From Chiloscyllium plagiosum (taxonomy: Eukaryota): a stretch of 64,000 bases of DNA. A program made the position numbers and the translations under genes. Location of the stretch: assembly GCF_004010195.1 (NCBI RefSeq), contig NC_057718.1, positions 98,779,794 to 98,843,793 on the forward strand. The letters run 5' to 3'. Positions within the stretch are counted from its first letter, which is position 1, and each line of letters starts with the position of its first letter. Shown piece by piece: positions 11,325 to 57,450 of this stretch. A model generated the notes under the pieces. The model saw only the letters and a list, made by a program, of their open reading frames with translations. It did not search any database and was not told where the DNA came from.

Positions 11325-11905
11325 TAGCACTGGAGAGAATGCAGAGGAGATTTACCAGGATGTTACTGAAAACAAAAAATGCTGGAGATCATAGCGGGTC
11401 AGGTGGTATCCATGTAGAGAAAGCAAGTTAACATTTCTAGCCTAGATGGCTCTGATGAAGAGCTGCAAACGGCAGCATTTTTTTGTTTTCAGTATCTGCA
11501 GAAATTTGCTCCTACATTGCGTTTACCAGGATGTTGCCTGGCTGGAGAGTTTTAGTGATGAAGGGAGGGTTAGATTGACTGGGCTTGCTTATCTTGGAGC
11601 AGAGTTCAGATGTATAACAGTTTGAGGGGCATTGACAGAGCTGACAGGAAGACACCTTTCCCCATGATGGAGTGATCAAAGACTGGGGCAGAGAATTAAA
11701 AGTAAGGAGCAGAAGGAGATGTGAGGAAAAGCTTTTTTACCCAGAGGGTGGTGGGAGTCTGGAACTCATTGCTTGTAAGGTGGAAACATTTAAAAAGTAT
11801 TTGGATGCGCACCTGTGTTGCCAAGACTATGGGCCAAGTGCTGGAAAATGGGATGAGAATAGGTAGGACGAGAACAGGGCAGACCGGATGGGCTGAAGAG
11901 CCTGT
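11325..11905 (+). mobile_element. Decayed CR1 3' end, interrupted at 11365-11521
   Basis: gcagaggagatttaccaggatgttgcctgg and the motif RKSFFTQRVVGVWNSL. Confidence 0.8.
11365..11521. mobile_element. Penelope-like short palindromic insert
   Basis: Exact 14-bp TSD tttaccaggatgtt (11351-11364 and 11522-11535); inverted ends actgaaaacaaaaaatgctg / cagcatttttttgttttcagt; ctgatga remnant. Confidence 0.75.
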
Positions 11906-12945
11906 TTTGGTGGTGCAGAGCTGGCCAAAGGCAAGTAAAGTATCTTCCCACTCCACAAAGTCCTCCCAATACCTGCTGGCTCCTGGGATCCACAGTTGAT
12001 AATACTGGAGGTTGGTGTGCAAAAGATTGACATCCTCAGTCTGGGACGTCAATACTATCCGAGGCAAATGCCTCATCCAGTTGCTTAAAGGTTGTATCAT
12101 GTATTTCCTATAGGATACACTTCAGCAAATAACTAATACTTTCCCCTTGTTAAAAGGCATGCAACTTTGCATGGAATCACTTGTGCCTACTCGCTGCCTG
12201 AAGATAGATCTGAGCACAGACAACACTTTTGATCATGGGTAGAATAAGGAAACACGTCAGCCAGAAAAGGCATCAAATCCTTACATTGTTCTTACCGCCC
12301 AGTCACTCCAACGAGCTGACCTTGCAAGGAAGCTAACTTGCTGAGGCAGCATGTGATTTTTAAACCTATATGTTGAGAAACTGAGCTAGTTACTCAGTTC
12401 AACCGTGACTCGGGATGTATAATAAATGCCAGTCTTGCCAGTGATGGACACTTTCCATGCAAAACAAAAATCAGGCCAGCACTTTCCTCATAGCCTTTTG
12501 GAACGTCCACCATTAATTTGTCTTTGGATTTTGTATTTCACAATGTATGTCACCATCAGTGGGCCTTTTTTTGCAAGGCAAGTCAAGACTTTGAAGACTT
12601 TCTTTCACAGGATAGTCTGTCCTGATTTATAGTTCCGAGACAGTGAGCTCAGAGGTGTTACTGAGTCTAAACAGTGTAAGGACGGTAAAATTGACATCCA
12701 TGGGCATAAATCATTAACACAGATGCTTCAGTGATCCTGTCACTTTGAATGTTGATATCAATTTAACTCTATAGCATTGCCATGCCCTCTAAGCTAGAAC
12801 TCACATCTCCCTGTTATGCTAGCAAATGAGAGCAGAAACTGGAAACGTACTAAGAGCTATCCATTGTTTGCAGTGGCCAATGACACTTGAAATGTTACAA
12901 TTAAAAGGTATATTTCAGAGAGAAATTAAAACTAAAATTTCATAA

Positions 12946-13282
12946 ATTTGTGAGAAGATTTGTAGCTCGGGAGCTTGTTGTTGTGGTCCTGTTCGCCGAG
13001 CTGAGAATTTGTGTTGCAGGTGTTTAGTCCCCTGTCTAGGTGACATCCTCAGTGCTTGGGAGCCTCCTGTGAAGTGCTTCTGTGATGTTTCCTCCGGCAT
13101 TTATAGTGGTCTGTCCCTGCCGCTTCCGGTTGTCAGTTCCAGCTGTCTGCTGCAGTGGCTGGTATATTGGGTCCAGGTCGATGTGTTTGTTGATAGAATC
13201 TGTGGATGAGTGCCATGCCTCTAGGAATTCCCTGGCTGTTCTCTATTTGGCTTGTCCTATGATAGTAGTGTTGTCCCAGTAC
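12946..13282 (-). mobile_element. Penelope-like retroelement 3' fragment (GIY-YIG endonuclease C-terminus and pLTR)
   Basis: Reads WDNTTIIGQAK*RTAREFLEAWHSSTDSINKHIDLDPIYQPL, typical of the PLE endonuclease end. 9-bp TSD atttcataa (12937-12945 and 13283-13291). Confidence 0.85.
13015..13055 (-). ncRNA. Degenerate minimal hammerhead ribozyme in the Penelope pLTR
   Basis: gca-CUGAGGA-u-gucaccu agac aggggac-UAAAC-ACC-ugc. Stems I and II are present; the GAAA and NUH positions are mutated. Confidence 0.65.
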
Positions 13283-14727
13283 ATTTCATAAGCTTTCAAA
13301 TATGAGACTTTAGCCTTCAAACCAGAAGACAAGTTATCGAGGTTGAGTTTCTCAAAACATATCGGCTCAGAATTTGCTGGTAAAACAACAGCAGGTTTAA
13401 TGAATCTTGTCATTATATATGACCCAATCACCTGGAAAGCTTTGGGGGAAGGGAGGGTGTGATATATCCCATGAATTATGAATTCCCATAAACTACTGGG
13501 CAATTTGCATTGCTCCGCCTTTAGCCATGAGAAAACACAATTTTATGCTCATACTTCCAGTGAATGTCGAAACATTTCTGCATTTGTATTGTTAAAACAA
13601 TCAAATTTTCCAATGCAAGGTAAGCCCAGTATTTAACAGAGTAAGATCCTTTTAAAAACAAGGTTATTTTCATGTAATCCCACTCAACCTCTCTGGTCTA
13701 GAAAGGGATACCATTTAAACTATGAAGTTGCTTTCCAACAGCTACCAAATTATTCACAGAGCTATCTTTCAAAGTGAATGTTTGCACATATTTACATTTT
13801 TTTCATCTTTTCCTTTCTGTCTCTTTATTATTTCTTTCTTTCTCCATATTCATTTATCTCTCTGGAGCTGATTTGATTTTAATTCACTACTTTCCACTTG
13901 TCTGAATGACCAAATGACTCTCCTTATAATAAAGTCACTAATGACTTTAGACTTAAATGTGTTGTGCAAATCTCAATGCATTACCTGATATCAGAAATCC
14001 ATGCAAACTGAAAGGAAGCAGTTCATTGAAGCCACTGAACTGTTCTCAGGAAGCAAGATTTAAAAAAGCAAGGAGATAATTCCAAAATCTGTGGGCCAGT
14101 CAGTTTGGAGCTCCCTAAATGTAAGTGTTGAACAAATAAATTAGCATGACAGATGCCAATACTGCTACAGGAATTCCAATTTTCCAATTCAAAGCATTGG
14201 CAAGAATGTCTTATTGCATCAGGATTGACAGGCAGATTGTAAGTTAGAATAGTGAACATGCTGATTTACTGCATGTGTGATAAAGAATATAATGCTTTTG
14301 CATCATTCAACCAAACAGATGGCCCCTTGTGTTTACACCACCCTTCCCCCCAACTGCTTTGTGCCATTGATGTCAGGTCTGCCTTCAGTCATGTAAAACC
14401 CTCATTCTCTAGACCCATCCTTTTCTCCGTTTCTCTCCCCTTTGGAGCCCATTTACAATTTATGTCTATGACTAGTCTTTTGGCGCCCACTCTTCTTCTT
14501 TGTCTTACTGTCCGTTATTGTCTGCTAATGTTTCCATGAAGGACTGTGGAAATGGTTTCTTGGGATTGGGGCTGTATAACTGCAAGTCATAGCTTCATTG
14601 TGGTTTTATTGAAAAGTAATAATTCCATTGGATCGGGAAACTGATATAATTTCAAAGTGGGCTAGAGAGTCGACTGCACATTTAAGTGTACAATGGTGAC
14701 ACAATGGAATCAACATTATCCAGTGCA

Positions 14728-14955
14728 CTAAAATCAGAAAATGGTGGAGAGACTCAGAAGGCCTCAGCAGGTGAGACAAACAGATTTATCATTTTGGGTT
14801 CAATGACTCTTGTTTGGAATTGTGCAGAGGTTCCGGAGAAGAGTCATTTTCGACTCAAAAGGTTGCTCTCTCCAAAGATGGTGCCAGACTTGTTTTGTTT
14901 CTCTAGCATTTTCTGTTATTTTAATTTTAGCTTTCCAGCATCCACAATGTTCTCC
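14728..14955. mobile_element. Old Penelope-like palindromic element
   Basis: Inverted arms aaaatcagaaaatggtggagagactcag / tttctctagcattttctgttattt with a decayed hammerhead remnant near 14833-14865. Confidence 0.6.
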
Positions 14956-15174
14956 TTGAATTATTCAGTACACCTTAGCCATGAGGACACATACAAACAG
15001 CTTAGATATGTATCCAGCCTGGTTTCCATATTTAGCAATGGACTCCTGCCAGTGTCATTGCATGCACATGCAAGACCAGCTGTACATTTTTAGGGCCCAA
15101 GGTTTGGAAGAAGGACTTAGGCAAATATATCTTTTGTACCAAGCCTTTTGTCTTAGTGGACAAAACTTCTGTGT

Positions 15175-15650: not shown

Positions 15651-15657
15651 GTCTTTA

Positions 15658-17009: not shown

Positions 17010-17236
17010 AAGAGAACTGCAGATGTGATAAATCAGAAACAAAAACGAGAATTGCTGGAAAAGCTCAGCAGGTCCGGCAGCATCTGTGGAGAGAAATCAG
17101 AGTTAATGTTTCGAATCCAGTTTGGGGTCCAGTGACAAACTGTAAAGAAGGGTCACTTGATTTGAAACATTAACTCTGATTTCTCTCCACAGATGCTGTC
17201 AGACCTGCTGAGCTTTTCCAGCATTTCCTGTTTCAG
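17010..17236. mobile_element. Penelope-like palindromic element
   Basis: About 65-bp inverted arms (gctggaaaagctcagcaggtc..ggagagaaatcagagttaatgtttc and its reverse complement) around a decayed hammerhead. Confidence 0.85.
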
Positions 17237-18379: not shown

Positions 18380-18772
18380 AATCCCCACAGTGTGGAAGCA
18401 GGCCATTTGGCCTATCATGTCCACACTGCCCCTCCCACCCAGACCTACACCCCTATCCCTGTAACCTGCATTTCCCATGGTCAATCCACCTAGCCCGCAC
18501 ATCCCTAGACACTATGGGCAATTTAGCATGGCCAATCCTGACCTCTTGTGCTTTTCCAGTGCCACACTTTTTGATTCTAACTCTCCAGTCCTCACTTTGT
18601 CAATCCACCTAACCCACACATCTTTGGACAGTGGGTGGAAACTGGAGCACCCACAGAAAACCCAGAAAGACACAGGGAAAATCCACACGGACAGTTGCCC
18701 AAGGCTGGAATCGAACTTGGGTCATTGGTGCTGTGAGATAGCAGTGCTAACCACTGAGCCACCATGCCACCC
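18380..18772 (-). mobile_element. HE1-like V-SINE containing a short Penelope-like fragment (about 18539-18600)
   Basis: Head and V domain on the - strand; the insert is flanked by caatcc duplicates. Confidence 0.8.
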
Positions 18773-19361
18773 CAATTAAACTAAATCTTATTCTAACTCT
18801 AAACTAATCCTGTCTGCCTACCCATCAATGATGGCAGCACACTCATCTCTGAATCAGAAGGATTGTAGGTTCAATTCCAACTAGAAGATTGCCTGCATGT
18901 GGTCCCTATCCCTTTATTCCCTGTCTGTTCATGTTCAGTGCAAACGGTTTCTGGGACAACATAGTGGGTTGTCTAAACATGCTATTGTACCAGGTTGAAG
19001 TTATAATGCAACTGGGTGTGACGACCAGTTAGCTGGAAGCATCTACTGGAGGTGTCTCACACTTTATGGATTTGGTGGGGGACACAAGGATAGTGACTTA
19101 CTCATTTATGTTGACACAATGTTGAGTTTAACTAAAACAGTCAGATATTACATTCACAAAACATTGTGGTGAATTCTGTGCATGATTATTTCTTCAAAAG
19201 CAGACCAAGATTGAGCTCTATCACAATGTTGTGAGGCAGTTAATTAGATCAAACCAGTCGCTTACTTGCAGTGATATCTTTGGCTGAATATCTCTTACAA
19301 AAATATTGTTTTAACTTTGCTTCCTGTTATTTCCCTTTAAACTGTCACCACTTTATTTGTG

Positions 19362-19547
19362 AAGAGTGTGGTGCTGGAAAAGCACAGCAGATCGGGCAGC
19401 ATCTGAGGAGGTGGAGAATTGAAGAAGGGCTTATGCCCGAAACCTCGATTCTCCTGCTCCTCGGAGGCTGCCTGACCAGCTGTGCTTTTCCAGCATCACA
19501 CTCTCGACTCTGATCTCCAGCATCTGCAGTACTCACTTTCTCCTCCG
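19362..19547. mobile_element. Penelope-like palindromic element
   Basis: 12-bp TSD actttatttgtg (19350-19361 and 19548-19559), inverted arms, core tgaaga-agggcttatgccc-gaaac. Confidence 0.9.
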
Positions 19548-19924
19548 ACTTTATTTGTGCTTAGAAAACTAAGTGTTATCTAAAGTCCAACATTTAATCA
19601 TTTAGGCATTCCCTGGATTTTGGAAGAATTAGAAGCAATCTCACTGAAACATTTAAATTATCAGGGGGCTTAAAAGGGTAAATGCTGATGCTTTTTACCT
19701 TTGGATGGAGACTTTAGAAAATGGAACACCAGTCTCAGGATATGGAAGCCATCATTTGGGACTGAGATGAGGAAGAACACCCAGAGGGTTCTCAATCTGA
19801 GAATTCTCTATCTCAGAGACTGTGGACAATCAGCCACTGAGTATTTTCAAAGCTGAGATTATAAAATTCCTTGAGATTTCAAGACCAAGGGCATATCAGG
19901 TTATTTACTTATGTGATCTACCTG

Positions 19925-20016: not shown

Positions 20017-20021
20017 TATTT

Positions 20022-20500
20022 CTAAGATGAGCGGAGAAGGATTTGAAATGGCCCTGGGGGAAACCTTTTCACACAGAGAGTGGTTCATGTGTGGAATGAA
20101 CTGCCAGAGGAAGTGGTGAATGCACATACAGTTACAACTTTGCAAAGGCATTTGGATAAATACATGAATAGGAAAGGGTTGGAGGGATATGGGCTGGAAA
20201 TGTGTTGCTGGAAAAGCGCAGCAGGTCAGGCAGCATCCAGGGAACAGGAGAATCGACGTTTCGGGCATAAGCCCTTCTTCAGGCTTATGCCCGAAACGTC
20301 GATTTTCCTGTTCCCTGGATGCTGCCTGACCTGCTGCGCTTTTCCAGCAACACATTTCCAGCTCTGATCTCCAGCATCTGCAGACCTCACTTTCTCCTTG
20401 GAGGGATATGGGCCAAGTTCAGGCAGGTGGAACTAGTTGGGATGGACTAGTTGGACCAAAGGGTCTGTTTCCGTGCTGTATGACTCTATGACTGTGTATG
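20022..20500 (+). mobile_element. HER1-like CR1 3' end, interrupted at 20195-20397
   Basis: Motif VHVWNELPEEVV..RHLDKYMNRKGLEGYG and a (ctatgact)n tail. Confidence 0.9.
20195..20397. mobile_element. Young Penelope-like palindromic element
   Basis: 81-bp inverted arms (20193-20273 and 20282-20362) with 1 mismatch, 35-nt tail, TSD ttggagggatatgggc (20179-20194 and 20398-20413). Confidence 0.93.
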
Positions 20501-22985: not shown

Positions 22986-24053
22986 ACAGGCGTACTACGT
23001 CAGAGAGCTACAATAAGTTTCAATTTCTACCCCATTGCTTCAGTTTTATGTTTGGTGCATTCCAGAATATGGGTCCAGCATCTTTAAAGAATTTGACTTA
23101 ATTCCAATAACAACTTAAGATAAGCTCAATGTCAAAACAAATAAAAGAATACTGGCCCAGTCAGTGATGCTCATATTTTATGCTATCTCACTTACCCCTT
23201 CTCTTGCATTACCATAGAATTGTGTAGCAACAATAATTTCCATTTAAACAGCACCTTTTATGTAACGAATGAATTAAAAACAAGGGCACTGGATATGCAG
23301 TGGAACATAAGCCCTTCATGTAAGTGATTGATATACACAACTTTCGACCGAAATGTGGTATCGTGCAGAACGTCCTGTTAATTAGACTCCTACCTGCAGC
23401 CTTCAGCTTGAATATAAGTTGTACCCTTGTTGGCTTGGAAGTGTGAACTGATAATGACCCAGCAAGGGAATGGAGGTATCTGAGACTCCTGTAAATGGTG
23501 AGACCACCAATGTATCTCCTTAACTAACAGGATTTACTCATTCAGAAAGAAACAACAGGAAAATTAAGAAGGTTAATGGAGGGGATCCAGAAGTGTGAAA
23601 TTAAATTCACAAGGTTTGGAGGGTTTGAGGCTGAATAGGCTGGGGCTATTTTCCCTGAAGCATCAGAGGCTGAGGGGTGACCCTATATAGATTTATAAAA
23701 TCATGAGGGACATGAATAAATAGACAAGGTGTTTACCCCAAGGTGGGGGAGTTCAGAACTATAGGACATAAGTTAAGGTAAGAGAGGAAAAATTTAATCG
23801 GGATCTAAGGGGCAGCATTTTCATACCGAGAGTGGTGCATGTATGGAATGATCTGCCAGAGGAAGTGGTGGAGGCTGGTAAAATTACAACATTTAAAAGG
23901 CATCTGGATAGGTACATGAATAGGAAAAGTTTGGGGGATATGGGCCAAATCATGGCAAATGGGACTAGATTAATTTGGGATAGCTGGTTGGCATGGACGG
24001 TGTGGACAAGTTGAACCAAAGAATTTGTTTCCATGCTGTACAGCTCTATGACT

Positions 24054-24140
24054 AAAAATCACACAACACCAGGTTATAGTCCAACAGGTTTCTTTGGAAG
24101 CACTAGCTTTCGGAACACTGCTCCTTCATCAGGTGGTTTT
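24054..24140 (-). mobile_element. 87-bp Penelope-like pLTR insert
   Basis: Exact 13-bp TSD cagctctatgact (24041-24053 and 24141-24153); same family as the palindrome at 43744-43948. Confidence 0.9.
24101..24135 (-). ncRNA. Minimal type I hammerhead ribozyme, apparently intact
   Basis: CAC-CUGAUGA-A-GGAGC AGU GUUCC-GAAA-G-CUA-GUG: stem I CAC/GUG, 5-bp stem II, loopless palindromic stem III (AGCU), NUH = CUA. Confidence 0.8.
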
Positions 24141-25229
24141 CAGCTCTATGACTTGTATGACTCTAAGACACCGAAGAGAGTTAAAAATGAAAAGAAAGAC
24201 TGAATTGAAGATTAGAAAAAGTGAGACTGATATGCAACAAAAGCATTTTGGCATTTTTAAATTCTCTAACAACAATTGATTATTTCTTGGAAGAAAACAG
24301 TATAAATTGTTCCCTTTCATGACCAGTGAACGTAACTGACATTCATTTTCAGGTTGTTAAAATGGTATTTATGCTGTTAATCATGAGCTTTGACATTCTG
24401 TAGCAAGTTTTTAAGGTTAATAAGGAGGCTAAGAATGATATGACATTTGTGTGGGGGAATTGGGGAAATCAACCAGATCTGCAATTAGGGGCATATCCTG
24501 GAATTTCTGGCTAGTTCATGCATTAAGAATGACATACATTGTTCAAAAACAGTGATTTTTTTGCAGCAAAATTCTCCTCATTCTCTCATTTGTCTTGTCA
24601 GAAACAAACAATGGACAGGGGAGACAATTGCACGTTCAATGTTCGTTACTGCTGGTTTGGTTATTCATTGTCTTTACCTTGTGAAACTTCTTTCGCCATT
24701 AAGGGCAATTAAACCATTATGATAGAAATAAAATTTTAATTAATTTATTTTCTTCAGAAAAAAATTGCCCCAGGGAAAGTAATATAATTGACTGTAGAAT
24801 CATTCTGCATCCCCCTTTGCCACTAGAGATTTATTTTCACATAAGAAGATTAAAGAATAAAATTTGGCTGGGACTTTTTTTAAAAGAAAGATTGTGTATT
24901 TCTCATTGAAGCTGCATTAATGTTACCTCATTTCTTCTGCAGTCTTTTGCGGTTTGCTGTCTCCATGTGAACTACACCTTCTGTCACAACTGGTGTCTCA
25001 AGTCTCACAAATTTCATTTCTTTAAACTCTGATTTATAATCCCTTGGTTCAGTTTGCCTCTGTGTCTTGATTCCACTCTTTTCAAACTGCTGTTATTATC
25101 ACACATTCGGGATGTTGAAATTTCCATCAAGGATGTTTTTTCATTCTGTCTTCATTCATACATCCCCATGATATTGGATCCTCTCTCCTTTATATATGAT
25201 TCTCTCCCATCCCTTCGACTTTTCTTCAG

Positions 25230-25928: not shown

Positions 25929-25962
25929 CGTTCTCTTGCATAACCATGGAGTTGTGCCGCAT

Positions 25963-31025: not shown

Positions 31026-31877
31026 TGAAACCTGATTACGTTCAATCCTCATTATCCACGAGGCACAGGGACATGGATTTCCTCTGAATAAGAAATAAAG
31101 AACGGAGACCACTACTGTGTTCTTCGACCCTGCAGTGTGAAAGATTGCATGATGTTTAGCGAGGCAGACAATGGGGTAAGGATAAAACTGGGCCTGAAGC
31201 CAAATTCCTGAGTACACAGCTCCGTGGATTGTGAGTCAGTGGATAACAAGGAGTGAGTGGTAGTCACAATCTGTCAACCTGAAAATTACCCATTTATTCC
31301 TGTTGTCTGTTTTCTGTACATCAACAATTGCTTGAGAAGAGAGGACACTGATTGAAGATGATTGGCAAAAATGACCAACAGCAACACGAGTAAAGTCCTT
31401 TTCACTTTGTAAGTGGTTAGGATCTGGAACTCACTCCCCAGAGGCAGCTTCGAGTGCAGTTCTCAAAAAGCGTCTGAAGAGAAAAGGAAAACATTACATG
31501 GTCAGTCTGAAAAAAGCGGGGAAGAGTTGCTCTTGCAGAGAACGAATGAGTAATTGGCCTCTTCCTGTATTGTAGCCATTCTAAAATACTCTGACTGGGA
31601 TTCAAATTTGACAATTGCTCCAAAGCAAATTAGAAGAGTATACACACATAAGAATAAATGAAACTTTGGGCAAAACCATTGTATTTGTAACTGGTTACTG
31701 TCACATAGGTGTGCAGTGAAATGACTATTTTCACTGTCTCTGTCCAATCTCTGATTCATATTCCTTCCTGTGTGAAAATATGCCCTTTCCTCTCCAGTAG
31801 TCTTCTGAAGTCCTGGAAACCTGCTTAGCGTGTGGTCAGATTTTGCTTTTGAATTTGCAAGCCAGCTGAATTCATAG

Positions 31878-31964
31878 ATTCTGGATCAGTGGTGCTGGAA
31901 GAGAGCAATTCAGGCAGCATCCGACGAGCAGCAAAATCGACGTTTCGGGCAAAAGCCCTTCATC
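31878..31964 (-). mobile_element. 87-bp Penelope-like single-arm insert
   Basis: 8-bp TSD attcatag (31870-31877 and 31965-31972); hammerhead truncated in the core (GAUGA-A-GGGC UUUU GCCC-GAAAC-GUC). Confidence 0.85.
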
Positions 31965-32599
31965 ATTCATAGGCTAAGTAAAATACACAGAAGTGGTGAA
32001 TTTATTAAATGTATTAAGACTGAATTGGCCATCCCTCTTTTGTTGCTGATAGAATGAATTTTCCATTGAGGTAGTTGTGGAGTATTTGCTGTACAGAAGC
32101 AAACCATTCCGCCGCACAACTGTAAATTGACTAGCAAATTTTGCAGAAAGCAATTCTTGATCGACTTAGTTTGAAAATAGAATAGATGGAACTGGAACTC
32201 ATTTAATCTGTTTTCTACAGCTGCAACTATAAGGGGGTTGATCAACTCAGTACAGGTAATGGTGGAAACATGTCAAGTGCCATTTTAGTGAAGGCATTGT
32301 AGAGATGTCTGAGGTGGCTGTGTGAAAACAGGCACTGTCCCCTTTGATGCTTGTTGTAGCATCCAAACTGGAAACTGGCCTAGCTCAAACTCATACGTGC
32401 TAGCATGTCAACGCTCCAGACAAGGTTAGGAGGCAATTTGACAGAGTTGTATAAAATCAGGAGGACTTTAGAGGAAGTAAATAAAGAAACACTATTTCAA
32501 AGGTTGATAGCTAGAGAAAACAAGGTTTAAGATGTGTTGCAGAAGAACCACATGAGGAAATCTTGATTTTACACAATAGAATTTGGACTTAACTAGGAG

Positions 32600-33394: not shown

Positions 33395-34050
33395 AATGAC
33401 AGGACATTAGTCCCCTCAAATCTGAACTGCCATGCATTAAGATTGCAGCTGATCTGTTTGGGTTTTGAATTCTACACCTTGATAGTCTTTTATTCCCCTG
33501 CTGAACAAGAATCTATCTACTAGATTAGAGTGGTGCTGGAAAAGCACAGTAGGTCAGGCAGCGTCTGAGGAGCAGGGAAATCAATGTTTCGGGCAAAAGC
33601 CTTTCATCAGGAATGGAGGCTTTTGCCAAAAATCTATCTACCTCTGCCTTAAAAATATTCACTGTTTTCTGCATCTTCTGAGGCAGAGAGTTCCAAAGTT
33701 GCACAACCTTTTGAGAGAAAAATGTCTCCTCATTTATGTTTTAAAAGGGTGACTCCTTATTTTAAAACAGTGGACTCTAGTTGTAGACTGACCCACACGA
33801 GGAAAACCCTTTCCACATCCACGATAACTCACCATTCAGGATCTCACGCACTTCAATCAATTCTCGTCTCGCTCTTCTACACTCAAAACAGGCCCAGTCC
33901 GACCAACCTTCCCTCATAAGAATACCCATTCATTTCATGTAACAGTCTAATAGATCTTCTCTGATCTGTATCCATTGCATTTATATCCTTCCATAACTAA
34001 GAAAATCAAAACTGGGCACAGTATTTGTAATGTGGTCTTACCAATGCCCT
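33395..34050 (-). mobile_element. Decayed CR1 3' end with a Penelope-like insert
   Basis: ttctgaggcagagagttccaaa, cagtatttgtaatgtggtct and other CR1 3' blocks. Confidence 0.7.
33521..33630 (-). mobile_element. Penelope-like insert, single arm plus short fold-back
   Basis: 11-bp TSD aatctatctac (33510-33520 and 33631-33641); - strand attc-CUGAUGA-AAGGCUUUUGCCC-GAAAC-AUU. Confidence 0.85.
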
Positions 34051-35090: not shown

Positions 35091-35547
35091 CATACTCATA
35101 GATTAATATTTTCTCCTGTAAAGTTATGCCTTGTCTTAGCAGAGCAGATGTTCATGAGGCAGGACTGAATAAGGTAGTCAGCCAGTCAAAACAAGAATGA
35201 GCTGTAACTATTTCAAACATGTGGCAGGTTATTCATCAAAAGCAAAATGCTGTGGATGTTGGAAATCTGAAATCAGAGCAGAAAGTGCTGGTAATGCTCA
35301 TCAGCAAGTCTGGCACCTCTTGTGAAGAGAGAAAAACAGAGTTATTAACCTTTCATCAGGGTGTTAATCAAAGTGGTCTCACAAAAGTATCATTGACACT
35401 GGATGCTTCTCTTTTGTTAATTTCAATAATAAATAATTACGTTTTGAGGTTGTCAAATTAAGTCTTCTTTCAATAGAAACTATGGGAAGGATTATCATTT
35501 AAATTTGTGTTAATCACTTCAATGTATCCAATTTCCTTTTGCTACAG

Positions 35548-38139: not shown

Positions 38140-38308
38140 ATGCTGAAAGAACTGCAAATGCTAGATATCAGAAACATGAAAACAGAAATTGCTGGAAAAG
38201 CACAGCAGGTTCTGAGGAAGGGTTACTTGACCAGAAAAATTAAGTCTGATTTCTCACCACACATGCTGCCACATCTGTTGAAATTTTCCAGCAATTTCTG
38301 TTTTTGTT
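38140..38308. mobile_element. Penelope-like palindromic element (17010 family)
   Basis: Arms aaaacagaaattgctggaaaa / ttttccagcaatttctgtttt; core gtt-ctgagga-agggttacttgacca-gaaa. Confidence 0.8.
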
Positions 38309-38431
38309 GCTAATAACTTATTGCAACCTCTTAAAAATGTTGATCAATCACAGATGATACTTCCAGTCAAACTGTTTCATAACAATGTCAATTTAAGTGA
38401 GTGGCTTGCTCAGCTGTTTGAAAGGGCAGTT

Positions 38432-40285: not shown

Positions 40286-40383
40286 TTGGGTCATAACTGT
40301 CCTGTTGTCCCAGTGCAGCCACTGGAGGATTCACCACTTAAATTGTCGGGACCTGCTGACACGGTCACCCACAATATCTTTGT

Positions 40384-40526
40384 TTCTGGATCAGTGGTGC
40401 TGGAAGAGCACAGCAATTCAGGCAGCATCCGATTTTGCTGCTCGTCGGATGCTGCCTGAATTGCTGTGCTCTTCCAACACCACTGATCCAGAATCTGGTT
40501 TCCAGCATCTGCAGTCATTGTTTTTA
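40384..40526. mobile_element. Penelope-like palindromic element
   Basis: 15-bp TSD ccacaatatctttgt (40369-40383 and 40527-40541); 49-bp arms with 1 mismatch; 33-nt tail. Confidence 0.92.
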
Positions 40527-40646
40527 CCACAATATCTTTGTGCCAGTGGCTGAATATGGAAACACTCACCTCCCACTTGTAGGGTCAGCAGCTGAGAACA
40601 GCTTGGAGTGAGCAGCTCATAGAGGCAGGCTGTCACCTACAATGGG

Positions 40647-40779
40647 GAGAAAGTGAGGTCTGCAGATGCTGGAGATCAGAGCTGAAAATGTGTTGCTGGT
40701 AAAGCACAGCAGGTCAGGCAGCATCCAAGGAACAGGAGAATCGACGTTTCGGGCATAAGCCCTTCATCAGGGCAGAGTG
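40647..40779 (-). mobile_element. Penelope-like single pLTR with tail and intact hammerhead core
   Basis: 11-bp TSD cctacaatggg (40636-40646 and 40780-40790); - strand CUGAUGA-A-GGGC UUAU GCCC-GAAAC-GUC at 40741-40771. Confidence 0.9.
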
Positions 40780-40867
40780 CCTACAATGGGCATCAGCCTC
40801 TTATCACCGCCACGACTAAAGTCATAGAAACTTAGAATAGGAGCACAGGTAGGCCATTTGGTTCTTC

Positions 40868-41065
40868 AAGGCAGAGGTGTGTACTGCAGATGCTGGAGAT
40901 TAGAGTCAAGATTAGAGTGGCGCTGGAAAAGCACAGCAGGTCATGCAGCGTCTGAGGGGCAGGAAAATCGATGTTTTGGGCAAAAGCCCCATGAAGGAGT
41001 TTGCCCGAAGCGTTGATTTTCCTGCTCCTAGAATGCTGCCTGTACTTTTCCAGCACCACTCTAAT
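40868..41065. mobile_element. Penelope-like palindromic element inserted in a CR1 tail
   Basis: 13-bp TSD catttggttcttc (40855-40867 and 41066-41078); inverted arms attagagtgg..ccactctaat. Confidence 0.9.
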
Positions 41066-41493
41066 CATTTGGTTCTTCGAACCTGCTCCAGCATTCAATA
41101 TGATCATGGCTGATCAAACCAACTCAGTACCCATATTCTCTCACCCTAACATCAGTTGGGTTTTGTAGACCTGCTGAAAGAATTCCTGTTGTATGTTTCT
41201 CAAGGGAAATGAGTGGCTTCCATCAAAAGGGATGTTTTGACAGGCAGCTGCTGTATCTCCTCATTGAAGCAGATAGCCGAGCAGAATTGACACTGAAATC
41301 AGGTGACCTTCAAAATGGTGTGCACATATTGCAGGAGCATTCATTCAGATGAGCTTGCTCAAAGAATTGATGAATTAAAATTCTGGGGGACTGTAAAGTG
41401 CCTATGGTGATGCACAGGTATATTTTGGGTCATTCTTTCAAGGACAGAATTGTTCATATTTGTCTCTTTAAAATGCAAACTGTAAATCTTTAG

Positions 41494-41630
41494 AACAAAA
41501 TACTGCAGATGCTGGAAATCTATTAAAAACCCAGGAGATGCTGGAGAAACTCAGCAGGTCTAGCAGCATCTGTGGAGAGAGAAACAGTTAAACATTTTGA
41601 GCCATGAACTGTTAACTCTGTTTCTCTGTT
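41494..41630. mobile_element. Penelope-like palindromic element, partial
   Basis: aaatactgcagatgctggaaatc..gagagaaacagttaa / gttaactctgtttctct. Confidence 0.7.
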
Positions 41631-42407
41631 ATCAAATCTTGAATGTGCACACTTTATTTAGGATGATTGCTTTATTTTAAAGTTGGAGGCAATCTCAAAT
41701 AATTTACTTAATCAGGCTAATAGTAAGCCGGCTATTCCTATCTGAATAATCTCAGAGTATATATAGTTTTGGACAAATAATTCCTTTGATTTATGGAAAG
41801 TGTACATATCCTTAGAATGGAGCTAACTAGTTGTTAGGGAAGAGTCTTACATGCCTATCATTAGCAGTGATGCAAAATGATCTTACAGGAGATAATGATT
41901 ACTGCTGTCTGCAAATGTTCCTCTGAAGGAAGGCCAGGAGGCACAAGTCAGCAATCATACAGAAACACTTCAGTTAAGTTCATCACTAGCTCTGAGGAAA
42001 CTCTGAAAATAGATCTGCCAACTGCAGTCTGACATAATGTTAAAATTCTTAAAGGACAGCGCAAGTATATCTGCCACTCATTACATAAGATATGAGCCAG
42101 CACCAGGGTCAGACAATCTATTATTGATAGCAAGTGACAGCCTCATTACAGCTGAAGGATTGGACGGTACTGGGAATGAAAATCACGACATCTTCACAAA
42201 ACTATCGTAATGTGAAAGTCTGGTCCGAAAGGCAGATGTTCACCTGCATGGTCCCGTAAGAAATAGGGACAGGAGAAGGTCATTTGGCCCATCAAAGCTG
42301 CCCTGCCATTCAATAGGGTTATGGCTGATTCAATATTCCCCACGTCCACTTTCCCATATAACCATGTCATGTTTCACTAACATTGGTGGAACAGAACTTT
42401 CTGTGGT

Positions 42408-42806
42408 TCATAGAATCCCGATAGTGTTGGAAGCAGGCCATTCAGCCCACACTGACCCTCTGAAGAGCATCCTATGCAGATCTACTCCATCCCTATGACC
42501 CTGCATTTCCCATGTTTTATACACCTATCCTGCACATCCCTAGACACGACAGGCTATTTAGCATGAGTCCAAAAGGGTGGCACTGGAAAAGCACAGCAGG
42601 TCAGGCAGCATCTGAGGAACAAGAGAGTCAACGTTTCAGGCATAAACTCTTTATCAGGATTGTTCCTGATGAAGGGCTTACACCTGAAACATCGACTCTC
42701 CTGCTCCTCAAATGTAGCCTAAACTGCTATGCTTTTCCAACGCCACCCTTGAACTCTGACTCTCCAGCATCTACAGTCCTCAGTTTCTGTTATTTAGCAT
42801 GGCCAA
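42408..42806 (-). mobile_element. HE1-like SINE 3' half, interrupted at 42566-42790
   Basis: catagaatccc..gaagcaggccattcagccc..ctgcacatccctagacac..tttagcatggccaat. Confidence 0.75.
42566..42790. mobile_element. Penelope-like palindromic element with two divergent hammerhead cores
   Basis: 11-bp TSD tatttagcatg (42555-42565 and 42791-42801); cctgatgaagggcttacacctgaaacatc on + and a decayed mirror copy on -. Confidence 0.9.
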
Positions 42807-43160: not shown

Positions 43161-43743
43161 CTCCCTTTGGAAAGGTCTTTGCTACCTTTCCAAAGACTCA
43201 GCACTGTGTTCTCCTCATAAGGCACCATAGACCATTTTTTAATATGATGTGGGCATTTCTGAAAGGGCCAACATTTGTCACCCATTCGTTATAGATTTTC
43301 AGAGGGTGGTGGTTAGCCGTCTTCTTGAACTGCAGCACTCCATGTGGTGTAGGTACATCCACAGCATCTATTAGGGATGTTTACTCTAATAAGCATCAAA
43401 TTATATCAAGCTGGAGGGACTCCTGATTGACTATTTTAGGAAAAAAAAAGTCATAGGCAAGTTCTCATTCTCCACATGGGGAAGACAGGAAGATGGACCC
43501 ATAATTGATGGATTATGTCAGTGCAACACTGTCTGCGACTCACACTCTACAATGTTACAGGTGATGGGGAAAGCTGTGTGTGTCCCCTGCCATTAGCCTG
43601 GAGGATACCCTTAAATGGGCAATTTATACCCATATCTCTCCAATATACTGGGCAGCAGGAGAGTTCTTGTAGTGCATTGGTGGTGTTCCTGCCTCTGAGC
43701 TTGAAGGCCAAACTCAAGTCCCATTTGCTCCATAACATCTCTG

Positions 43744-43948
43744 GGCAAAGTTAAAAATCACACAACACCAGGGTATAGTCCAACAGATATATTTGGAAGC
43801 ACTAGCTTTTGGAGCGCTGCTTCTTCACCACCAAGAGACAGTGCCTCAAAAGCTAGCGCTTCCAAATAAACCTGTTGGATTATAACCTGGTATTGTGTGA
43901 TTTTTAACTTTGTCCACACCAGTTTAACACCGGCTCCTCCAAATCATG
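43744..43948. mobile_element. Penelope-like palindromic element (24054 family) inserted in a family D SINE
   Basis: About 65-bp arms aaagttaaaaatcacacaacaccagg.. / ..cctggtattgtgtgatttttaacttt; 12-bp TSD ataacatctctg / atagcatctctg. Confidence 0.88.
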
Positions 43949-44402
43949 ATAGCATCTCTGATTAGAAAATATCTGTGTGCGCCAGTGAAGTTGCACATGT
44001 GGCACACTGGTAGTGTCCTTACCTCTGAGCCCAGCTAACTTAGGCTCAATTCCTACTTGCTGCAAAAGGGATGCCAAGTCTGAATCAATGATTACAAAAT
44101 ATGTATAATAGACAGCAGGAAAGCTCAACACTTCATGTGTGCCTCAAAAAGTTTTACCCTGGAGCTGCTGTTGTTTCAGAGCCTATCTTGCACTTCTGAA
44201 CTTTACACTGGGATGCGGAGCGCCCACAAGGTTATAACTTTTGCCTGTCTTGGGCTTCTGATACCCATTTGAACTTGAGGCCAGGGTTTTAGAAGCCCAT
44301 GAGGGACCATCCTGTCCAGTCATCCAATTCAGTGTAAGGTAATTCTGATGACAGATCATTGACCTGAAACATTAGCAAATAAGGGCGTTCCCCAGGGATT
44401 CC

Positions 44403-46703: not shown

Positions 46704-47154
46704 TGTAGTTTTTTTTTTAAAAATGGGATATGAGTATCATTGGCATGGCCAATTCTGCACTGGCTTTCAGCAAGTGTCTTCTGGAACTGTTTTGGCTAAT
46801 GTGGCAAGATCCAACATAGTGTGTAATTCTCAGAACCTCTCAAGAGATAGTTTTTGATTTTTAAAGGCTATCTTTTGGTTTTCCAGAGCTGTTTCTTAAT
46901 GCTTACTGATCCCTTTATTAGTTGATGCAGTCACATATAAAATTATGTTCTATATTTGTATTGGATCCACATAGAAACAGAATTAGAATAATTCATGAAT
47001 ATCCTCAATATCAACTTCATTAAACCTACAGCCAGAATATATAAGGAAAGCATCAATTTCCTAGATGACACAGTAATTAACTTGGCACAGGGCGACATGT
47101 TGAAGTTAACAATAATTCTTTTCACAAAATAATTGTGACACACTTCTACACACA

Positions 47155-47318
47155 GGAGAAAGTGAGGACTGCAGATGTTGGAGATCAGAGTCGGAAGGTG
47201 TGGTGCTGGAAAAGCATGGCCGGTTAGGCAGGAGCCAAGGAGCAGGAGAATAGGATTCTCCTGGTCTTCAGATGCCGCCTGACCTGCTGTGCTTTTCCAG
47301 CGCCACACTTTTCAACAT
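47155..47318. mobile_element. Penelope-like palindromic element, hammerhead region deleted
   Basis: TSD ttctacacaca / ttctacataca (47144-47154 and 47319-47329); tail ggagaaagtgaggactgcagatg plus inverted arms. Confidence 0.85.
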
Positions 47319-47599
47319 TTCTACATACAAAAGGCCATCATCCTAAACGCACCTTCCACAGACTGGTATAGTCACAACAAAGTGCTTAGCATTAGCAGCA
47401 AGCATGGAAACAACTCCCCATCGTTAGAGAAACCGCTCCTCACCATTCCTTTCCATGCTATTCAGGGGGGTGACTTTTCCATAGTATGCACCCTTGTGAG
47501 TGAAATTTCCTGGATGAATTGGAGATTTCAAAAGCAAATTTGCCCGCTGACCCCATGTAATGTGGGCGTTGTCATCTGGCATCTGTAGCAGTTTTGTAC

Positions 47600-51012: not shown

Positions 51013-51270
51013 AAACAAGAACCAACAGCGCTGGAGAAACTCAGCAAGTCTGGCGGCATCTGGAAACAATTTTGAGTGAGGGAAACAGTGCTAATGTTTT
51101 GAATCCAATGTGACTTGCCTTTAGAACTGAAGAGGAAGTTGGGAAAGTGTATACTTCACACTGTGGTACAAGGTGGGGAGGAGCAGTGGAAAGATGGGAA
51201 GGTCAAGGGAAAGTTAGAGGGCAAGGGAGATTAGTGATTACAGGTGTCACAGGACAAAACACAAAGGGCA
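51013..51270 (-). mobile_element. Old Penelope-like pLTR and 3' UTR fragment
   Basis: gctggagaaactcagcaagtctggcggcatctg arm followed by purine-rich sequence, mirroring 56880-57120. Confidence 0.55.
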
Positions 51271-51366: not shown

Positions 51367-52952
51367 AGAGTCATAGAATCATAGAGATGTACAACACGGA
51401 AACAGACACTTCAGTCCAACCCGTCCATGCCGATCAAATATCCCAACCCAATCTAGTCCCACCTGCCAGCACTTGGCCCATATCCCTCCAAACCCTTCCT
51501 ATTCACATACCCATCCAGATACCTTTTAACTGTCACAATTGTACCAGCCTCCACCAATTCCTCTGGCAGCTCACTCTATACATGCACCACCATCTGCGTG
51601 AAAAAATTGCCCCTTAGGTCCTTTTATATCTTTTCCCACTCTTCCTAAACCTATGCCCTCTAGTTCTGGACTCTCCCGTCCCAGGGAAAAGACTTTGTCT
51701 ATTTATCCTATCCATGCCCCTCATGATTTTATAAACCTTTATGAGGTCACCCCTCTGCCTTCGATGCTCCAGGGAAAACAGCCCCAGCGTATTCAGCCTC
51801 TCCCTTTAGCTCAAACCCTCCAACCCTGGCAACATCCTTGTAAACCTTTTCTGAACCCTTTCAAGTTTCACAACATCTTTCCGATAGGAAGGAGACCAGA
51901 ATTGCACGCAATATTCTAAAAGTGGCCTAACCAACACCCTGTACAGCCAGAACATGACCTCTCAACCCCTATACTCAATACTCTGACCAATGAAGGAAAG
52001 CATACCAAATGCCTTCTTCACCATCCTATCTACCTGTGACTCTACTTTCAAGGAGCTATGAACCTGCACTCTGAGTCGCTTTGTTCAGTAACACTCCCTA
52101 GGAACTTACCATTAAGTATATAGATTTGCTTTCCCAAAATGTAGCACCTCGGATTTATCTAAATTAAACTCCATCTGCGGCTTCTCAGCCCATTGACCCA
52201 TCTGATCAAGAACCTGTTGTAATCTGAGGTAACTTTCTTTGTTGTCCACTACACTTCTAATTTTGGTGTCATCTGCAAACTTACCAACTATACCTTCTAT
52301 GTTCGTATCCAAATCATTTATATAAATGACGAAAAGCAGTGGACCCAGCACCGATCCTTGTGGCACTCCAGTGGTCACAGGCCTCCAATCTGACAAAACA
52401 ACCCTCCACCACCACCCTCTGTCTTCTACCTTAGAGCCAATTCTGTATTCAAAAGGCTAGTTCTCCCTGTATTCTATCCTTGCTAACCAGTCTCCCATGA
52501 GGAACCTTGTCCAGTGCCTTACTGAAGTCCATATAGATCACATCCACCACTCTGCTCTCACCAATCCTCTTTGTTACTTTTTCAAAAAACTCGTTCAAAT
52601 TCATGACTCATGATTTCCCACGCGCAAAGCCATGTTCACTATCCCTAATCAGTCCTTGCCTTTCCAAATCCGTGTAAATCCTGTCCCTCAGGAGTCTTTC
52701 CAACAACATGCCCACCCCCGATGTCACGCTCATCAATCTATAGTCCCCTGGCTTGTCTTTACCACATTTCTTAAATAATGGTACCATGTTAGCCAACCTC
52801 CAATCTTGTGGCACCTCACCTGTGATTATCGATGATACTAAGGGCCCAGCTTCCCTAGCTTTCCACAGAGTTCTAGGGTACACCTGATCAGGTCCTGGGG
52901 ATTTATCCACCTTTATGCGTTTCAAGACATCCAGCACTTCCTCCTCTGTAAT
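51367..52952 (-). mobile_element. HER1-like CR1 LINE, about 1.6 kb with RT domain
   Basis: Motifs KSPGPDQVYPR, PQDWRLANMVPLFKK, GVPQGSVLGPLLFVIYINDLD..KFADDTK; (ctatgact)n tail; stops and frameshifts. Confidence 0.96.
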
Positions 52953-52954
52953 AA

Positions 52955-53130
52955 GCTGGAATCCAAGGTAGATCAGCAGGAGGCTGGAAGAACACAGCAA
53001 GTCAGGCAGCAACAGGAGGTGGAGAAGTGAACATTTCATGACATGAAGAAGGGTTACACTCGAAACATTGACTTCTCCACCTCCTGATGCTGCCTGGCTT
53101 GCTGAGTTCTCCCAGTCTCTTGCTGGTCTA
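52955..53130. mobile_element. Penelope-like palindromic element; rest of its tail at 51348-51366
   Basis: Arms ggtagatcagcaggaggctgg..ggagaagt / acttctcc..cttgctggtctacc; core tgaaga-agggttacactc-gaaac. Confidence 0.85.
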
Positions 53131-53944
53131 CCATACAATAGGATCATGGCTGATCTCTCATTCTCACATCCACTTTCCTGCATTTTCCCCATAACCTTTG
53201 ATTCCCCGACTGATTAAGAATCAATCTCCCTCAACCTTAAATATACACAAGGACTCTGCCCCAACAGCTACTGTGTCAAGGAGTTCCAAAGACTCTCAAC
53301 TCGCTGAGAGAAGAAATTCAACCTCATCTCAGTCTGAAATTGGTGCCCCTTTATTATGAGACTATGCCCTCTTGTTCTAGACTCTCCCATGAGGGGAACC
53401 ATCCTCTCAGCATTGACCTTGTCAAGCCCCTTGAGAATCTGATATGTCTCAATGAAATCACCTCCCATTCCTCTAAACTCCAAGGAGTACAGTCCCAATT
53501 TGTTTAACCTTTGCTCAAAAGATATTTCCTCCGTACCAGGGATTAACTTAGTAAACCTTCTCTGAACTGCCTTCCACAAAATAATATATTTCTTGAAATA
53601 AGAGGATCCTACTGCTCAAATATACCAGATGCAGTCTCACAATACCTTGTACAGTTGCCATAAGACGTCACTACTCTTATATGCCAATCTGCATGAAATA
53701 AGGGCCAACATTCCATTCGCCTTCCTGATTACGTGCTTCACCTGTATGCTAGTATTCTGTGTTTTGTGCATAAGTAATGGTTATTGAGAAGTGTGAGAGT
53801 CCAGAGTAGTTTTCGCAGGATCCTGGAATTTCTGCACCATAGCTTACGCTGCATTTCCACATGATGTTAGGATCACTGAGACAATTTTAACATTGAGCCT
53901 TTCAATAAGGGACAATCTGATAAATAAACTGAAGGACTCTTCAT

Positions 53945-56028: not shown

Positions 56029-56609
56029 TAGAGGAATATCAAACCCTGCAGGCTATCAAATGTTACCTGAAATATTCCATGATGTGGGTGTTGCTGGCTA
56101 GATTGAAGTTTATTCCCCAACCATAGCTCCTCCGCATTTGTATCTTAAACTTGCAACATCTTACTCTGAGATTAGGTCCTGGACTCTCCCTAAAGGAGAA
56201 ATGGCATTTCCACGTCTACCCCAATGAGTCCTCTGAGAATCTTGCATGGTTCAACAAGGTCATCTCTCATACTAGCTTTCTTATTGAAGGCATTGTGTCC
56301 ATGTGGTCAATGTGCTTCCACAGGGCTGTTAGGTAGGGAGTTGTAGGAGGCCAATCCAGCAAGGTAAAGGCTAAGTCTGGCTAATGTAAAGCTGGGAGGG
56401 GAATATGGAAGTGATAGCATTACCATGAGCCTTCCACTGTTGTCATTCTCGGTGGTGAGGTCTCAGGTTCAGGAGTTGCTTTTGAAGGTAGAAAAGTAAA
56501 TCTGATATGTATTTTACTTAATTGTTATTGAACACTTAGTCAGCAATAGAAGTTGGACTTACCATAGGCTCAAAAATCCTCATGATAGAGTGACTGAGTC
56601 ATTTCAGGC

Positions 56610-57125
56610 CTAAAATCAAAACAGAAAGTGAAATAACTCCACAGAAGCTGGTTTACCAACACCAAGTCACTCTTTATTTTTACTTGGAGAATCCTTGATC
56701 CAGCTCCGTCAAAAGCCAGCTCTCAGAGTGAACAGAACCTCTAACACTCTTGTTTATATATGTCAGCCAGGGCTCCCTGATTGGACCAGATTAACAGCCC
56801 CAGTCAGGGAACCTATATTCTACGAAGTCCACCTGGCTGACCTTGTTACAATTACTACAGAAAATGCTTGAGAAACCATTATCAGTGTCTCTTTTGTTAG
56901 TTCTGGTCACCCTCATAGTCTGTTCCACTCGCTCCTCTTCCTTCTCTCAACAGCATAATAACCCCCAATTTCCAGCTACTTTCACTCTGAAGAGGTGTCA
57001 TGCTAGACTCGAAATATTAACTCTGTTTCTCTCTCCACAGATGCTGCCAGACCCTGTTGAGTTTCTCCAGCACTTTATATGTTTATTTCAGAATTCCACC
57101 ATCCACAGTAGTTTGCTTTTATTGA
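56610..57125. mobile_element. Penelope-like element with inverted arm and pLTR, split by the solo LTR
   Basis: ctgaaga-ggtgtcatgctagactc-gaaatattaactctgtttctctctccacagatgctgccagacc. Confidence 0.7.
56629..56859 (-). mobile_element. Solo LTR, 231 bp
   Basis: TG...CA termini (tgtagt..atttca on -), TATA-like tatataaa and AATAAA on -, flanks gaaag / gaaaa; interrupts the arm aaaacagaaaatgct. Confidence 0.7.
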
Positions 57126-57211
57126 AGTCTTCATAAAGGGCCTGGTCTATATAATTTATCTAAATTAACTTTCTGAGTGGTACAGATTTCACAACTGGCA
57201 GATCTCTGGAC

Positions 57212-57450
57212 CAAACAAAAACAGAAATTGCTGCAGAAACTCAGCAGGTCTGGAAACATCCATGGAGAGAAAATAGAGTTACAATTCAAGTCAATTGACC
57301 ATTCTTTAGTTCTGAATAAGTGTCATACCAGACTTGAAATGTTAACTCTGTTTCTCACTCTACAGGTGCCACCAGACTTGTTGAGTTTCTACAGCAATTT
57401 CTAATTTTGTTTGTTTCAGATCTCCAGCATTCCCAGTTCGTTGTTTTATT
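57212..57450. mobile_element. Penelope-like palindromic element (17010 family)
   Basis: Arms aaacaaaaacagaaattgctgcagaaactcagcagg / ttgagtttctacagcaatttctaattttgttt with tail tcagatctccagcat. Confidence 0.85.

Follow-up and report, generated by a model that had tools for sequence, protein, structure and literature searches.

Short inverted repeats in the Chiloscyllium plagiosum genome are Penelope-like element ends that join one long arm to one short arm

A 64,000-nt stretch of DNA from Chiloscyllium plagiosum (assembly GCF_004010195.1, 3.56 Gb; NC_057718.1:98,779,794-98,843,793; "the window" below) is dotted with short inserts, many of them inverted repeats, that are built around minimal hammerhead ribozymes. 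These inserts are, we are nearly certain, the hammerhead-plus-tail ends of Penelope-like elements (PLEs). In the inserts that are hairpins, one long arm is joined head to head with one short arm, and the joined ends usually lie at the 5' edge of the ribozyme. It is likely that this strict one-long-one-short shape records an enzyme that copied the start of an RNA simultaneously off the two ends of the cut DNA. The inverted pseudo-long terminal repeats, the one-sided tail, and the solo hammerheads have already been published. The copies are real and abundant, and the value of our analysis lies in two quantitative rules and in a poly(A) site.

We number positions from the C of CUGANGA (+1; the preceding base is 0). 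We call an arm S if its outer end belongs to the short class (about +83..+95) and L if it belongs to the long class (about +120..+128).

The inserts are ends of Penelope-like elements

As the initial annotation had proposed, the inserts derive from PLEs: for all four families, partner frames with a reverse transcriptase (RT) and a GIY-YIG endonuclease (EN) can be located, at other genome loci and in broken or partial copies. From 14,403 first-look candidates of a genome search for GIY-YIG, 150 were scored and 30 fetched. In 19 of these 30, a family 1 or family 4 end follows on the same strand after 200-750 nt. One locus (L144) encodes an RT with YIDD, a CX4CxxC linker, and a GIY-YIG domain with internal cysteines in a single 535-amino-acid frame. 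Pfam recognizes RVT_1 in L144 and GIY-YIG in L140. RT/GIY-YIG frames also lie upstream of ends of family 2 (L240, L243, L245), family 3 (L209, L212, L228), and family 4 (L032, L038, L069). Families 1, 3, and 4 have a CCHH motif with two cysteines between GIY and YIG, as well as a CX2-5CxxC zinc finger between RT and EN; in family 2, the zinc finger was seen by tblastn across the linker. Judging by the features described in PMC8557442, the host elements of families 1-4 appear to be of the Neptune type. The CX2-5CxxC linker is also present in Nematis (PMC8557442), and the vertebrate PLE clades reported are Neptune and Poseidon only (bioRxiv 10.64898/2026.07.22.740005).

The hammerhead-plus-tail sequence resembles the pseudo-long terminal repeat (pLTR) of a PLE. 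It is the right end of the unit and, in family 1, also its start, where it leads into the open reading frame (ORF). The tail precedes the ORF in the 30 loci that we retrieved with the family 1b ORF start. The leader begins beyond -20 in four of these loci, within -19..+10 in eight, and after +39 in 18. These are ends of a known kind of element, not separate families of micro-elements.

We made some other observations about these elements. The ORF-containing copies (L257-L286) are often cut within the leader (+39..+125; the 18 of 30 just mentioned), at a loss rate above that of first-pass arms; collision with an earlier cDNA could explain such cuts. At L254:2555-3040, a family 4 end has expanded to a 49-bp tandem array of about nine units (+43..+91) that lacks the ribozyme. 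The 3' untranslated region (UTR) of family 3 (L209, L208, L223) contains CA-rich tandem blocks of variable length.

Hammerheads, family relations, and abundance

A strict descriptor of the minimal hammerhead gave 3 matches in the window, compared to a mean of 0.1 over 30 shuffles, and 56 matches in 100 evenly placed 10-kb stretches of the genome (1 Mb), compared to 0-2 in five shuffles. An Rfam scan of the window gave no hammerhead match at E <= 5, just sub-threshold hits, mostly to miRNA families. The sequence features of a minimal type I hammerhead are present: a CUGANGA / GAAA / NUH core, stem II, a palindromic stem III, and a short stem I. Also, the covariation between families that had been noted from the window holds up, as the letters change while the pairing is kept. 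In the family majorities, stem II is GGGC/GCCC, GGGT/ACCC, GGGTC/GACTC, or GGAGC/GCTCC; stem III is ACGT or AGCT; and stem I is ATTC/GAAT, AGTT/AACT, AGTC/GACT, or CAC/GTG. Stem I has 2 bp in F1a, F1b, F1d, and F1e and 3-4 bp elsewhere.

The initial annotation counted at least four distinct families. Among the four that it listed, families 1, 2, and 4 turn out to be relatives. In a subfamily of family 2 (F2u, six copies), the core pair C3-G8 is replaced by U3-A8 and stem I is AGCT/AGCT; the upstream majority of F2u is noisy, and this 4-bp stem I comes from a separate comparison. Examples of the U3-A8 copies are L104:351, L069:2071, L127:1290, and L150:8689. A fifth hammerhead family, F6, has a longer stem II and accounts for 20 of the 315 elements in the genome sample described next; it forms fewer hairpins and is less truncated than families 1-3.

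To estimate abundance, we used 120 evenly placed (non-random) stretches from contigs C1-C33, with small contigs excluded. These hold 315 elements in 1,152,990 non-N bases, or one per 3.66 kb, and 104 of the elements are head-to-head. So the window's density, put at one per 3-4 kb in the initial annotation, is typical of the sampled genome. The elements cover 4.8% of the sampled bases. Their lengths are continuous, from about 70 bp to over 1 kb: 261 of the 315 have at most 260 bp, and 30 reach the upstream end of our references. Extrapolating from the evenly placed stretches, we arrive at roughly 1 million copies in the whole genome. One exact 23-nt ribozyme motif alone occurs 43,543 times. Our first genome search was biased by rare words, and we excluded its central hits from the sample statistics, although a few of its hits are still present among the 100 refined junctions discussed below.

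Two rules for the ends of arms

In every family, the outer ends are bimodal (S and L), and the hairpins nearly always combine the two classes. Leaving aside hairpins near stretch edges or gaps, 105 of 113 are L + S, five are SS, and three are LL (p = 5e-23). Kilobase-long family 3 inserts (L208, L216, L217) pair L with S too. Both classes also occur as single arms (112 S and 91 L).

The second rule concerns the inner ends, which stop at a wall. Of 296 arms with at least 84% identity, 196 reach +10, and 161 of these end by -10, with the ends piled up at -10..+10. Per nt, 3.9% of arms end at the wall; the figure is 1.2% at +26..+33 and between 0.2 and 0.8% across the bulk of the remaining bins. 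Most inner ends thus lie about 30 nt upstream of the cut site, at the 5' edge of the ribozyme, along the 5' strand of stem I, and single arms share this wall with the hairpins. The initial annotation had put the center of symmetry at or inside the hammerhead, which is not where we find it: it is mostly at the 5' edge and not at the cut site. The idea that the inserts are delimited by the ribozyme survives insofar as the ends are near it. Only 17 of 200 refined inner ends form a peak at the cut site (+27..+32, p = 2e-4), and this peak overlaps ACGT/TCGA palindromes, so it is confounded by microhomology.

At the 100 refined junctions, the arms overlap or abut in 39 cases (mean 2.9 nt, versus 0.65 by chance), and there are extra bases in the other 61. 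In 91 hairpins, S extends further 5' in 40, L does so in 21, and the two tie within 5 nt in 30 (p = 0.02). Of 512 departures from the family majority, 165 are common to the two arms of an element, compared to 13% in shuffles. Finally, a target site duplication (TSD) of at least 10 nt flanks 65 of 148 young short copies, versus 1% of 300 false flank pairs. These TSDs are 10-18 bp long (with one of 23), most often 12-15 bp, and 65% AT.

How the hairpins might form

We think that the hairpins probably form by double priming and run-off on the 5' leader of the RNA. The enzyme would make a staggered cut of 12-15 nt, which would yield two DNA 3' ends. L would be the priming site for one of them and S for the other, with the template usually a single RNA or a pair of sister RNAs. 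Both cDNAs would stop at the 5' end of the RNA (the upstream edge of the ribozyme) or, less often, at the ribozyme-cut end (+29). A unit-length RNA that starts near stem I would give run-off cDNAs of 90-130 nt, and if each RT start site were used once, from opposite DNA ends, then the product would be an L + S hairpin. Short homology or filler bases would then link the 3' ends of the cDNAs, and the product would be a head-to-head repeat with its tail on one side only. Retention of just one cDNA would leave an isolated S or L arm. For the 18% of arms that extend past the ribozyme, the source might be tandem or read-through RNA or a template jump.

Words similar to an initiator (Inr), whose consensus has low information, are found at the wall in F1a/c/e, F2, and F4 (TCATTC, TCAGTT, CCAGTC). 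Drosophila Penelope has an internal promoter (PMC2377424). The protein of PAc, a PLE of the anole, cuts and extends both DNA strands in vitro; its RT starts at two internal sites that bound the tail, and the reaction requires RNA up to +172 of the ORF, with ribozyme cleavage being dispensable (PMC11167929). By analogy, the 105 of 113 hairpins that are L + S would match these two internal start sites. If the requirement of PAc's RT for the tail plus ORF is valid here, then priming would take place in the 5' leader. Also, as a tail alone would not suffice for priming without the ORF sequence that follows it, most stubs would be dead on arrival.

Several points weigh against double priming with run-off. 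No TSD of at least 10 nt was found for 83 of the 148 young copies. The wall is about 20 nt wide rather than a single base, and a G copied from a cap is not enriched before it (5 of 12 versus 31 of 101, p = 0.52). Later deletion at palindrome centers could shift the inner ends. The S end falls before +80 in 11 of 53 hairpins but in just 2 of 29 single arms, and these shortened S ends look more like the end of synthesis than like a fixed priming site. Arm variants are discordant in 5 of 27 hairpins that carry the junction of the element at 20195. There is no pile of RNA starts among the element reads listed from a poly(A) single-cell run. And because PAc uses its start sites in vitro without a difference between strands, the account in PMC11167929 does not explain the one-long-one-short rule.

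We see four alternatives to double priming. An unlikely one is that the hairpins form from PLE ends by self-priming or fold-back, on an antisense template (as proposed for rotifer PLEs) or on a nascent cDNA, so that a single pass copies L, crosses the junction, and ends at S. PMC3846280 accounts in this way for pLTRs that lie head to head and have a tail on one side, and it would suit the early stops of S ends in hairpins (+14 to +82 in 7 of 31), the variants that the arms usually share, and the 21 of 91 hairpins in which L extends further 5'. But fold-back of an L-primed cDNA cannot yield the 40 in which S extends further, and an S-primed cDNA would have no tail. The stop point would need to coincide with the S start of single arms, which have an identical 5' wall without fold-back, and some hairpins combine two known variants (e.g., L332). 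We give slightly less credence to priming at the 3' pLTR or at a tandem junction, with the wall due to RT stalling at the hammerhead (possibly a dimer) or at a bound protein, and with the stubs as extreme 5' truncations. The wall does coincide with the 5' strand of stem I, and it shows neither cap-G enrichment nor a sharp single end; minimal hammerheads are thought to be dimeric, and most solo motifs have been read as truncated PLEs (PMC4209133). On the other hand, an RT that moves 3' to 5' has unwound stems I-III before it reaches -4, PAc protein in vitro needs ORF sequence that is missing from the 3' pLTR (PMC11167929), and family 3 RNA is polyadenylated at +56..+59, upstream of both RT start sites.

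The initial annotation asked whether the inserts might be separate self-propagating families, and our results speak against this. We consider it improbable that even some of the hairpins are non-autonomous families that propagate themselves with a PLE protein acting in trans. Mobilization in trans via pLTRs has been reported (PMC3846280), and retrozymes derive from PLEs (bioRxiv 10.64898/2026.07.22.740005). The genome contains 1,258 instances of the 23-nt junction of the element at 20195. Of 35 fetched copies, 31 have the same polarity (S left, L right), and there are 21 pairs of near-identical junctions versus 11.9 expected (p = 0.013). Yet this junction, the commoner of the two that we compared, is reversed in 3 of the 35. 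At least three haplotypes carry it, and in 22 of 27 copies the two arms agree (shuffle mean 9.5, maximum 17). We therefore favor repeated independent joining. The S ends vary among copies of this junction as well. The junction of the element at 40384 occurs just six times, and the other five copies have both polarities (four S left, one L left). Across the copies of these two junctions that we compared (35 of 1,258 and five of six), ends and junction were not inherited from one master. RT/GIY-YIG partners exist for every family, the lengths form a continuum, and we saw no carried-over flank common to several copies. For recurrent junctions, independent joining at favored microhomologies fits better than a master copy. 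As for miniature inverted-repeat transposable elements (MITEs) of a DNA transposon, or chance palindromes, they have the inverted-repeat shape and the small size in their favor, but we find them hardly credible: TSD length ranges over 10-18 bp, the ends lack symmetry, two thirds of the elements consist of a single arm, and RT/GIY-YIG frames directly adjoin the arms. Retro-insertion with variable TSDs had been suggested from the window, and it stands.

We also considered two further ideas and set them aside. An intermolecular template jump should leave a tail and upstream sequence from different subfamilies; such a mismatch is seen in 2 of 62 long family 1 arms, and both belong to one locus, so there is no support for such jumps. 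A jump within a single RNA would be traceless. An intron that ends at the tail does not fit either, as AG is not conserved among the ORF-start loci and the joints listed include no matching one.

RNA evidence

For RNA, we used a public poly(A) single-cell run (X19) from organism B, which may be another species than that of the genome. A family 3 copy is covered by 3,739 reads, with sense about fivefold over antisense across the ribozyme. Non-templated poly(A) follows +56 in 593 reads, +58 in 111, and +59 in 707, about 12-15 nt below A(A/T)TAAA. In the copy L209, about 1,400 poly(A) reads cluster at 2112-2115, inside the pLTR, and 136 more are at the long end, 2177. The letter variants in the reads imply several source loci, which could be host transcripts or element mRNA. 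It may be that family 3 stubs are portable poly(A) signals that end host transcripts. Most majorities of families 1, 2, and 4 have no poly(A) signal, and for family 1b, poly(A) is absent among the top loose read ends listed. No pile of ribozyme-cleaved RNA ends is listed among the element reads of this poly(A) run. A peak of loose ends at -3, together with two tandem joints made through a G in public contigs, would fit an RNA start at -3, but we do not count them because subfamilies also diverge upstream of that base.

There is a wider reading that we offer only tentatively, as one joint claim that has more chances of failing than of holding. The roughly 1 million inserts would be integrated "strong-stop" cDNAs that reveal the PLE cycle. 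The mRNA would be terminally redundant, like that of a retrovirus, from the first base of stem I to a poly(A) or ribozyme site just past the ribozyme. A protein dimer would prime both target strands at two fixed sites in the 5' leader of one RNA. Full-length pLTR copies would arise only if the RT jumps to the redundant 3' end, and the stubs would seed working poly(A) signals genome-wide.

Elements in the window

All 19 places listed in the initial annotation hold such sequence. Our catalogue has 22 elements, 11 head-to-head pairs and 11 single arms (Table 1). It adds those at 12949, 18537, 35238, and 51013, and it does not include the old copy at 11365, which was recovered solely by a relaxed search. 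TSDs of 8-19 bp had been claimed for about 12 inserts. We found TSDs of 8-16 bp at 13 of the 19 places, and none of 17-19 bp in the window; in the catalogue, 10 of 22 elements have a TSD of 8-16 bp. The TSDs of the inserts at 11365, 14728, and 47155 have 14-15 bp, with 0-2 mismatches.

The insert at 56610 had been assigned to family 2. It does hold an arm remnant of that family, but 56629-56859 is an unrelated 231-bp repeat that splits it. This repeat looks like a solo long terminal repeat (LTR), with TG...CA ends and AATAAA on the minus strand, and related pieces are found at eight of the other fetched loci. The window also contains ORF fragments at 9365-9934, 52608-53213, and 61088-61492, which look like RT frames of CR1-type long interspersed nuclear elements (LINEs); the family 4 insert at 52955 lies at the edge of one of them.

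Table 1. PLE-end inserts in the window, with arm ranges relative to the ribozyme core
Position	Feature	Strand	TSD
11351..11535	Old family-2-like head-to-head insert (11365-11521)		14 bp, 11351-11364 / 11522-11535
12949..13382	PLE right end, family F6a (presumably Poseidon-like, from its motif): end of endonuclease frame, 3' UTR, hammerhead (core from 13052), tail	-	
14715..14973	Old family 2 head-to-head insert, S arm left, L arm right		14 bp, 2 mismatches
17010..17233	Family 2 head-to-head insert, L left (+14..+125), S right (+4..+92)		None of at least 8 bp found
18537..18601	Decayed family 1 single arm (+53..+124)	+	
19350..19559	Family 1 head-to-head insert, S left, L right		12 bp
20179..20413	Family 1 head-to-head insert, S left (0..+90), L right (+10..+126); intact minimal hammerhead in S arm at 20282-20255 (-)		16 bp
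24041..24153	Family 3 single S arm (-5..+80), intact minimal hammerhead 24132-24104	-	13 bp
31870..31972	Family 1 single S arm (+2..+94)	-	8 bp
33506..33641	Family 1 S arm (-9..+91) and 9-nt inverted stub	-	15 bp
35238..35335	Decayed family 2 single L arm	-	
38146..38314	Family 2 head-to-head insert, L left, S right		None found
40369..40541	Family 1 head-to-head insert, S left (+43..+91), L right from cut site (+28)		15 bp
40636..40790	Family 1 single L arm (0..+128), intact minimal hammerhead 40770-40743	-	11 bp
40855..41078	Family 1 head-to-head insert, L left, S right		13 bp
41494..41633	Family 2 L arm (-) and short inverted stub		7-bp candidate only
42555..42801	Family 1 head-to-head insert, S left, L right, inner ends -4/-2		11 bp
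43732..43960	Family 3 head-to-head insert, S left, L right; AATAAA in right arm		12 bp
47140..47329	Family 1 head-to-head insert, L left, S right, inner ends +29/+30 (just past cut site)		15 bp, 2 mismatches
51013..51150	Old family 2 single arm	-	
52955..53131	Family 4 head-to-head insert (+20..+102 / +2..+89)		None found
56610..57120	Family 2 L arm 56953-57120 (+) and short inverted remnant about 56610-56877 (by eye)		
57213..57450	Family 2 head-to-head insert, S left, L right		None found

Comparison with known systems

The inserts have much in common with the insertion units of EN-containing (EN+) PLEs (PMC8557442, PMC3846280, PMC2377424): head-to-head arms, a one-sided tail, variable TSDs, an RT with a C-terminal GIY-YIG domain and CCHH, and an Inr-like word in the pLTR. 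The published units have an inverted truncated pLTR, a one-sided tail of 30-40 bp, and TSDs of 8-10 bp (PMC8557442, PMC3846280). What differs here is that 261 of 315 copies have at most 260 bp, at one per 3.7 kb. In the excerpts of these three papers, we found neither the one-long-one-short rule nor the wall at stem I stated. For the origin of the pLTR, tail, and inverted repeat of PLEs, these and other papers have put forward circles, antisense self-priming, and tandem mRNA. In the open-access literature, we found no paper that covers these families or the two rules, and none that proposes run-off or twin priming for PLEs; a whale-shark paper names Penelope once.

Another similar system is PAc, a Poseidon element of Anolis carolinensis (PMC11167929). 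It also has a hammerhead at the start of the unit and AT-rich targets; two ends, separated by about 35 nt, delimit its tail, and its ends are about 90-125 nt beyond the core of the ribozyme. In contrast, our families 1-4 carry Neptune's CX4CxxC linker. That work takes the mRNA to be tandem, and its main text leaves inverted copies and run-off stubs aside. The two rules seen in vivo, one L plus one S and a stop at the 5' edge of the ribozyme, constrain any model of PLE insertion. They are testable in this existing in vitro system, and the poly(A) site also makes competing models of PLEs testable. There is a practical side for annotation as well: PLE ends, at the 4.8% of sampled bases given above, resemble MITEs or miRNA hairpins.

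The ribozymes themselves resemble the minimal hammerheads of metazoan PLEs (PMC4209133), with a palindromic 15.2-16.2, an extra base before stem II, a short stem I, covariation between families, mostly solo motifs, and some pairs on opposite strands. The U3-A8 swap of F2u is also known from Cercyon of Schistosoma (PMC4209133). Cartilaginous fishes are not among the groups named in the excerpts of that paper, which gives 4,000-9,000 motifs per genome for coelacanth and frog, versus the 43,543 exact 23-nt motifs here, with different counting. Non-LTR retrozymes (bioRxiv 10.64898/2026.07.22.740005) are likewise derived from PLEs, non-coding, and equipped with a type I hammerhead, and tandem PLE-derived retrozymes are reported in one chondrichthyan. 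But these are head-to-tail arrays of at least two ribozyme units, whereas the copies in the window are dispersed, single or head-to-head, and flanked by TSDs. Rare head-to-tail joints exist outside the window.

Lastly, two better-known processes offer analogies, by which we do not mean membership. In the twin priming of L1, both target strands prime on the RNA, and non-overlapping parts of the RNA end up inverted; here, in contrast, one part of the RNA is copied twice. The minus-strand strong-stop DNA of retroviruses is a short cDNA that runs from an internal site to the 5' end of the RNA; it is primed by a tRNA and is not integrated.

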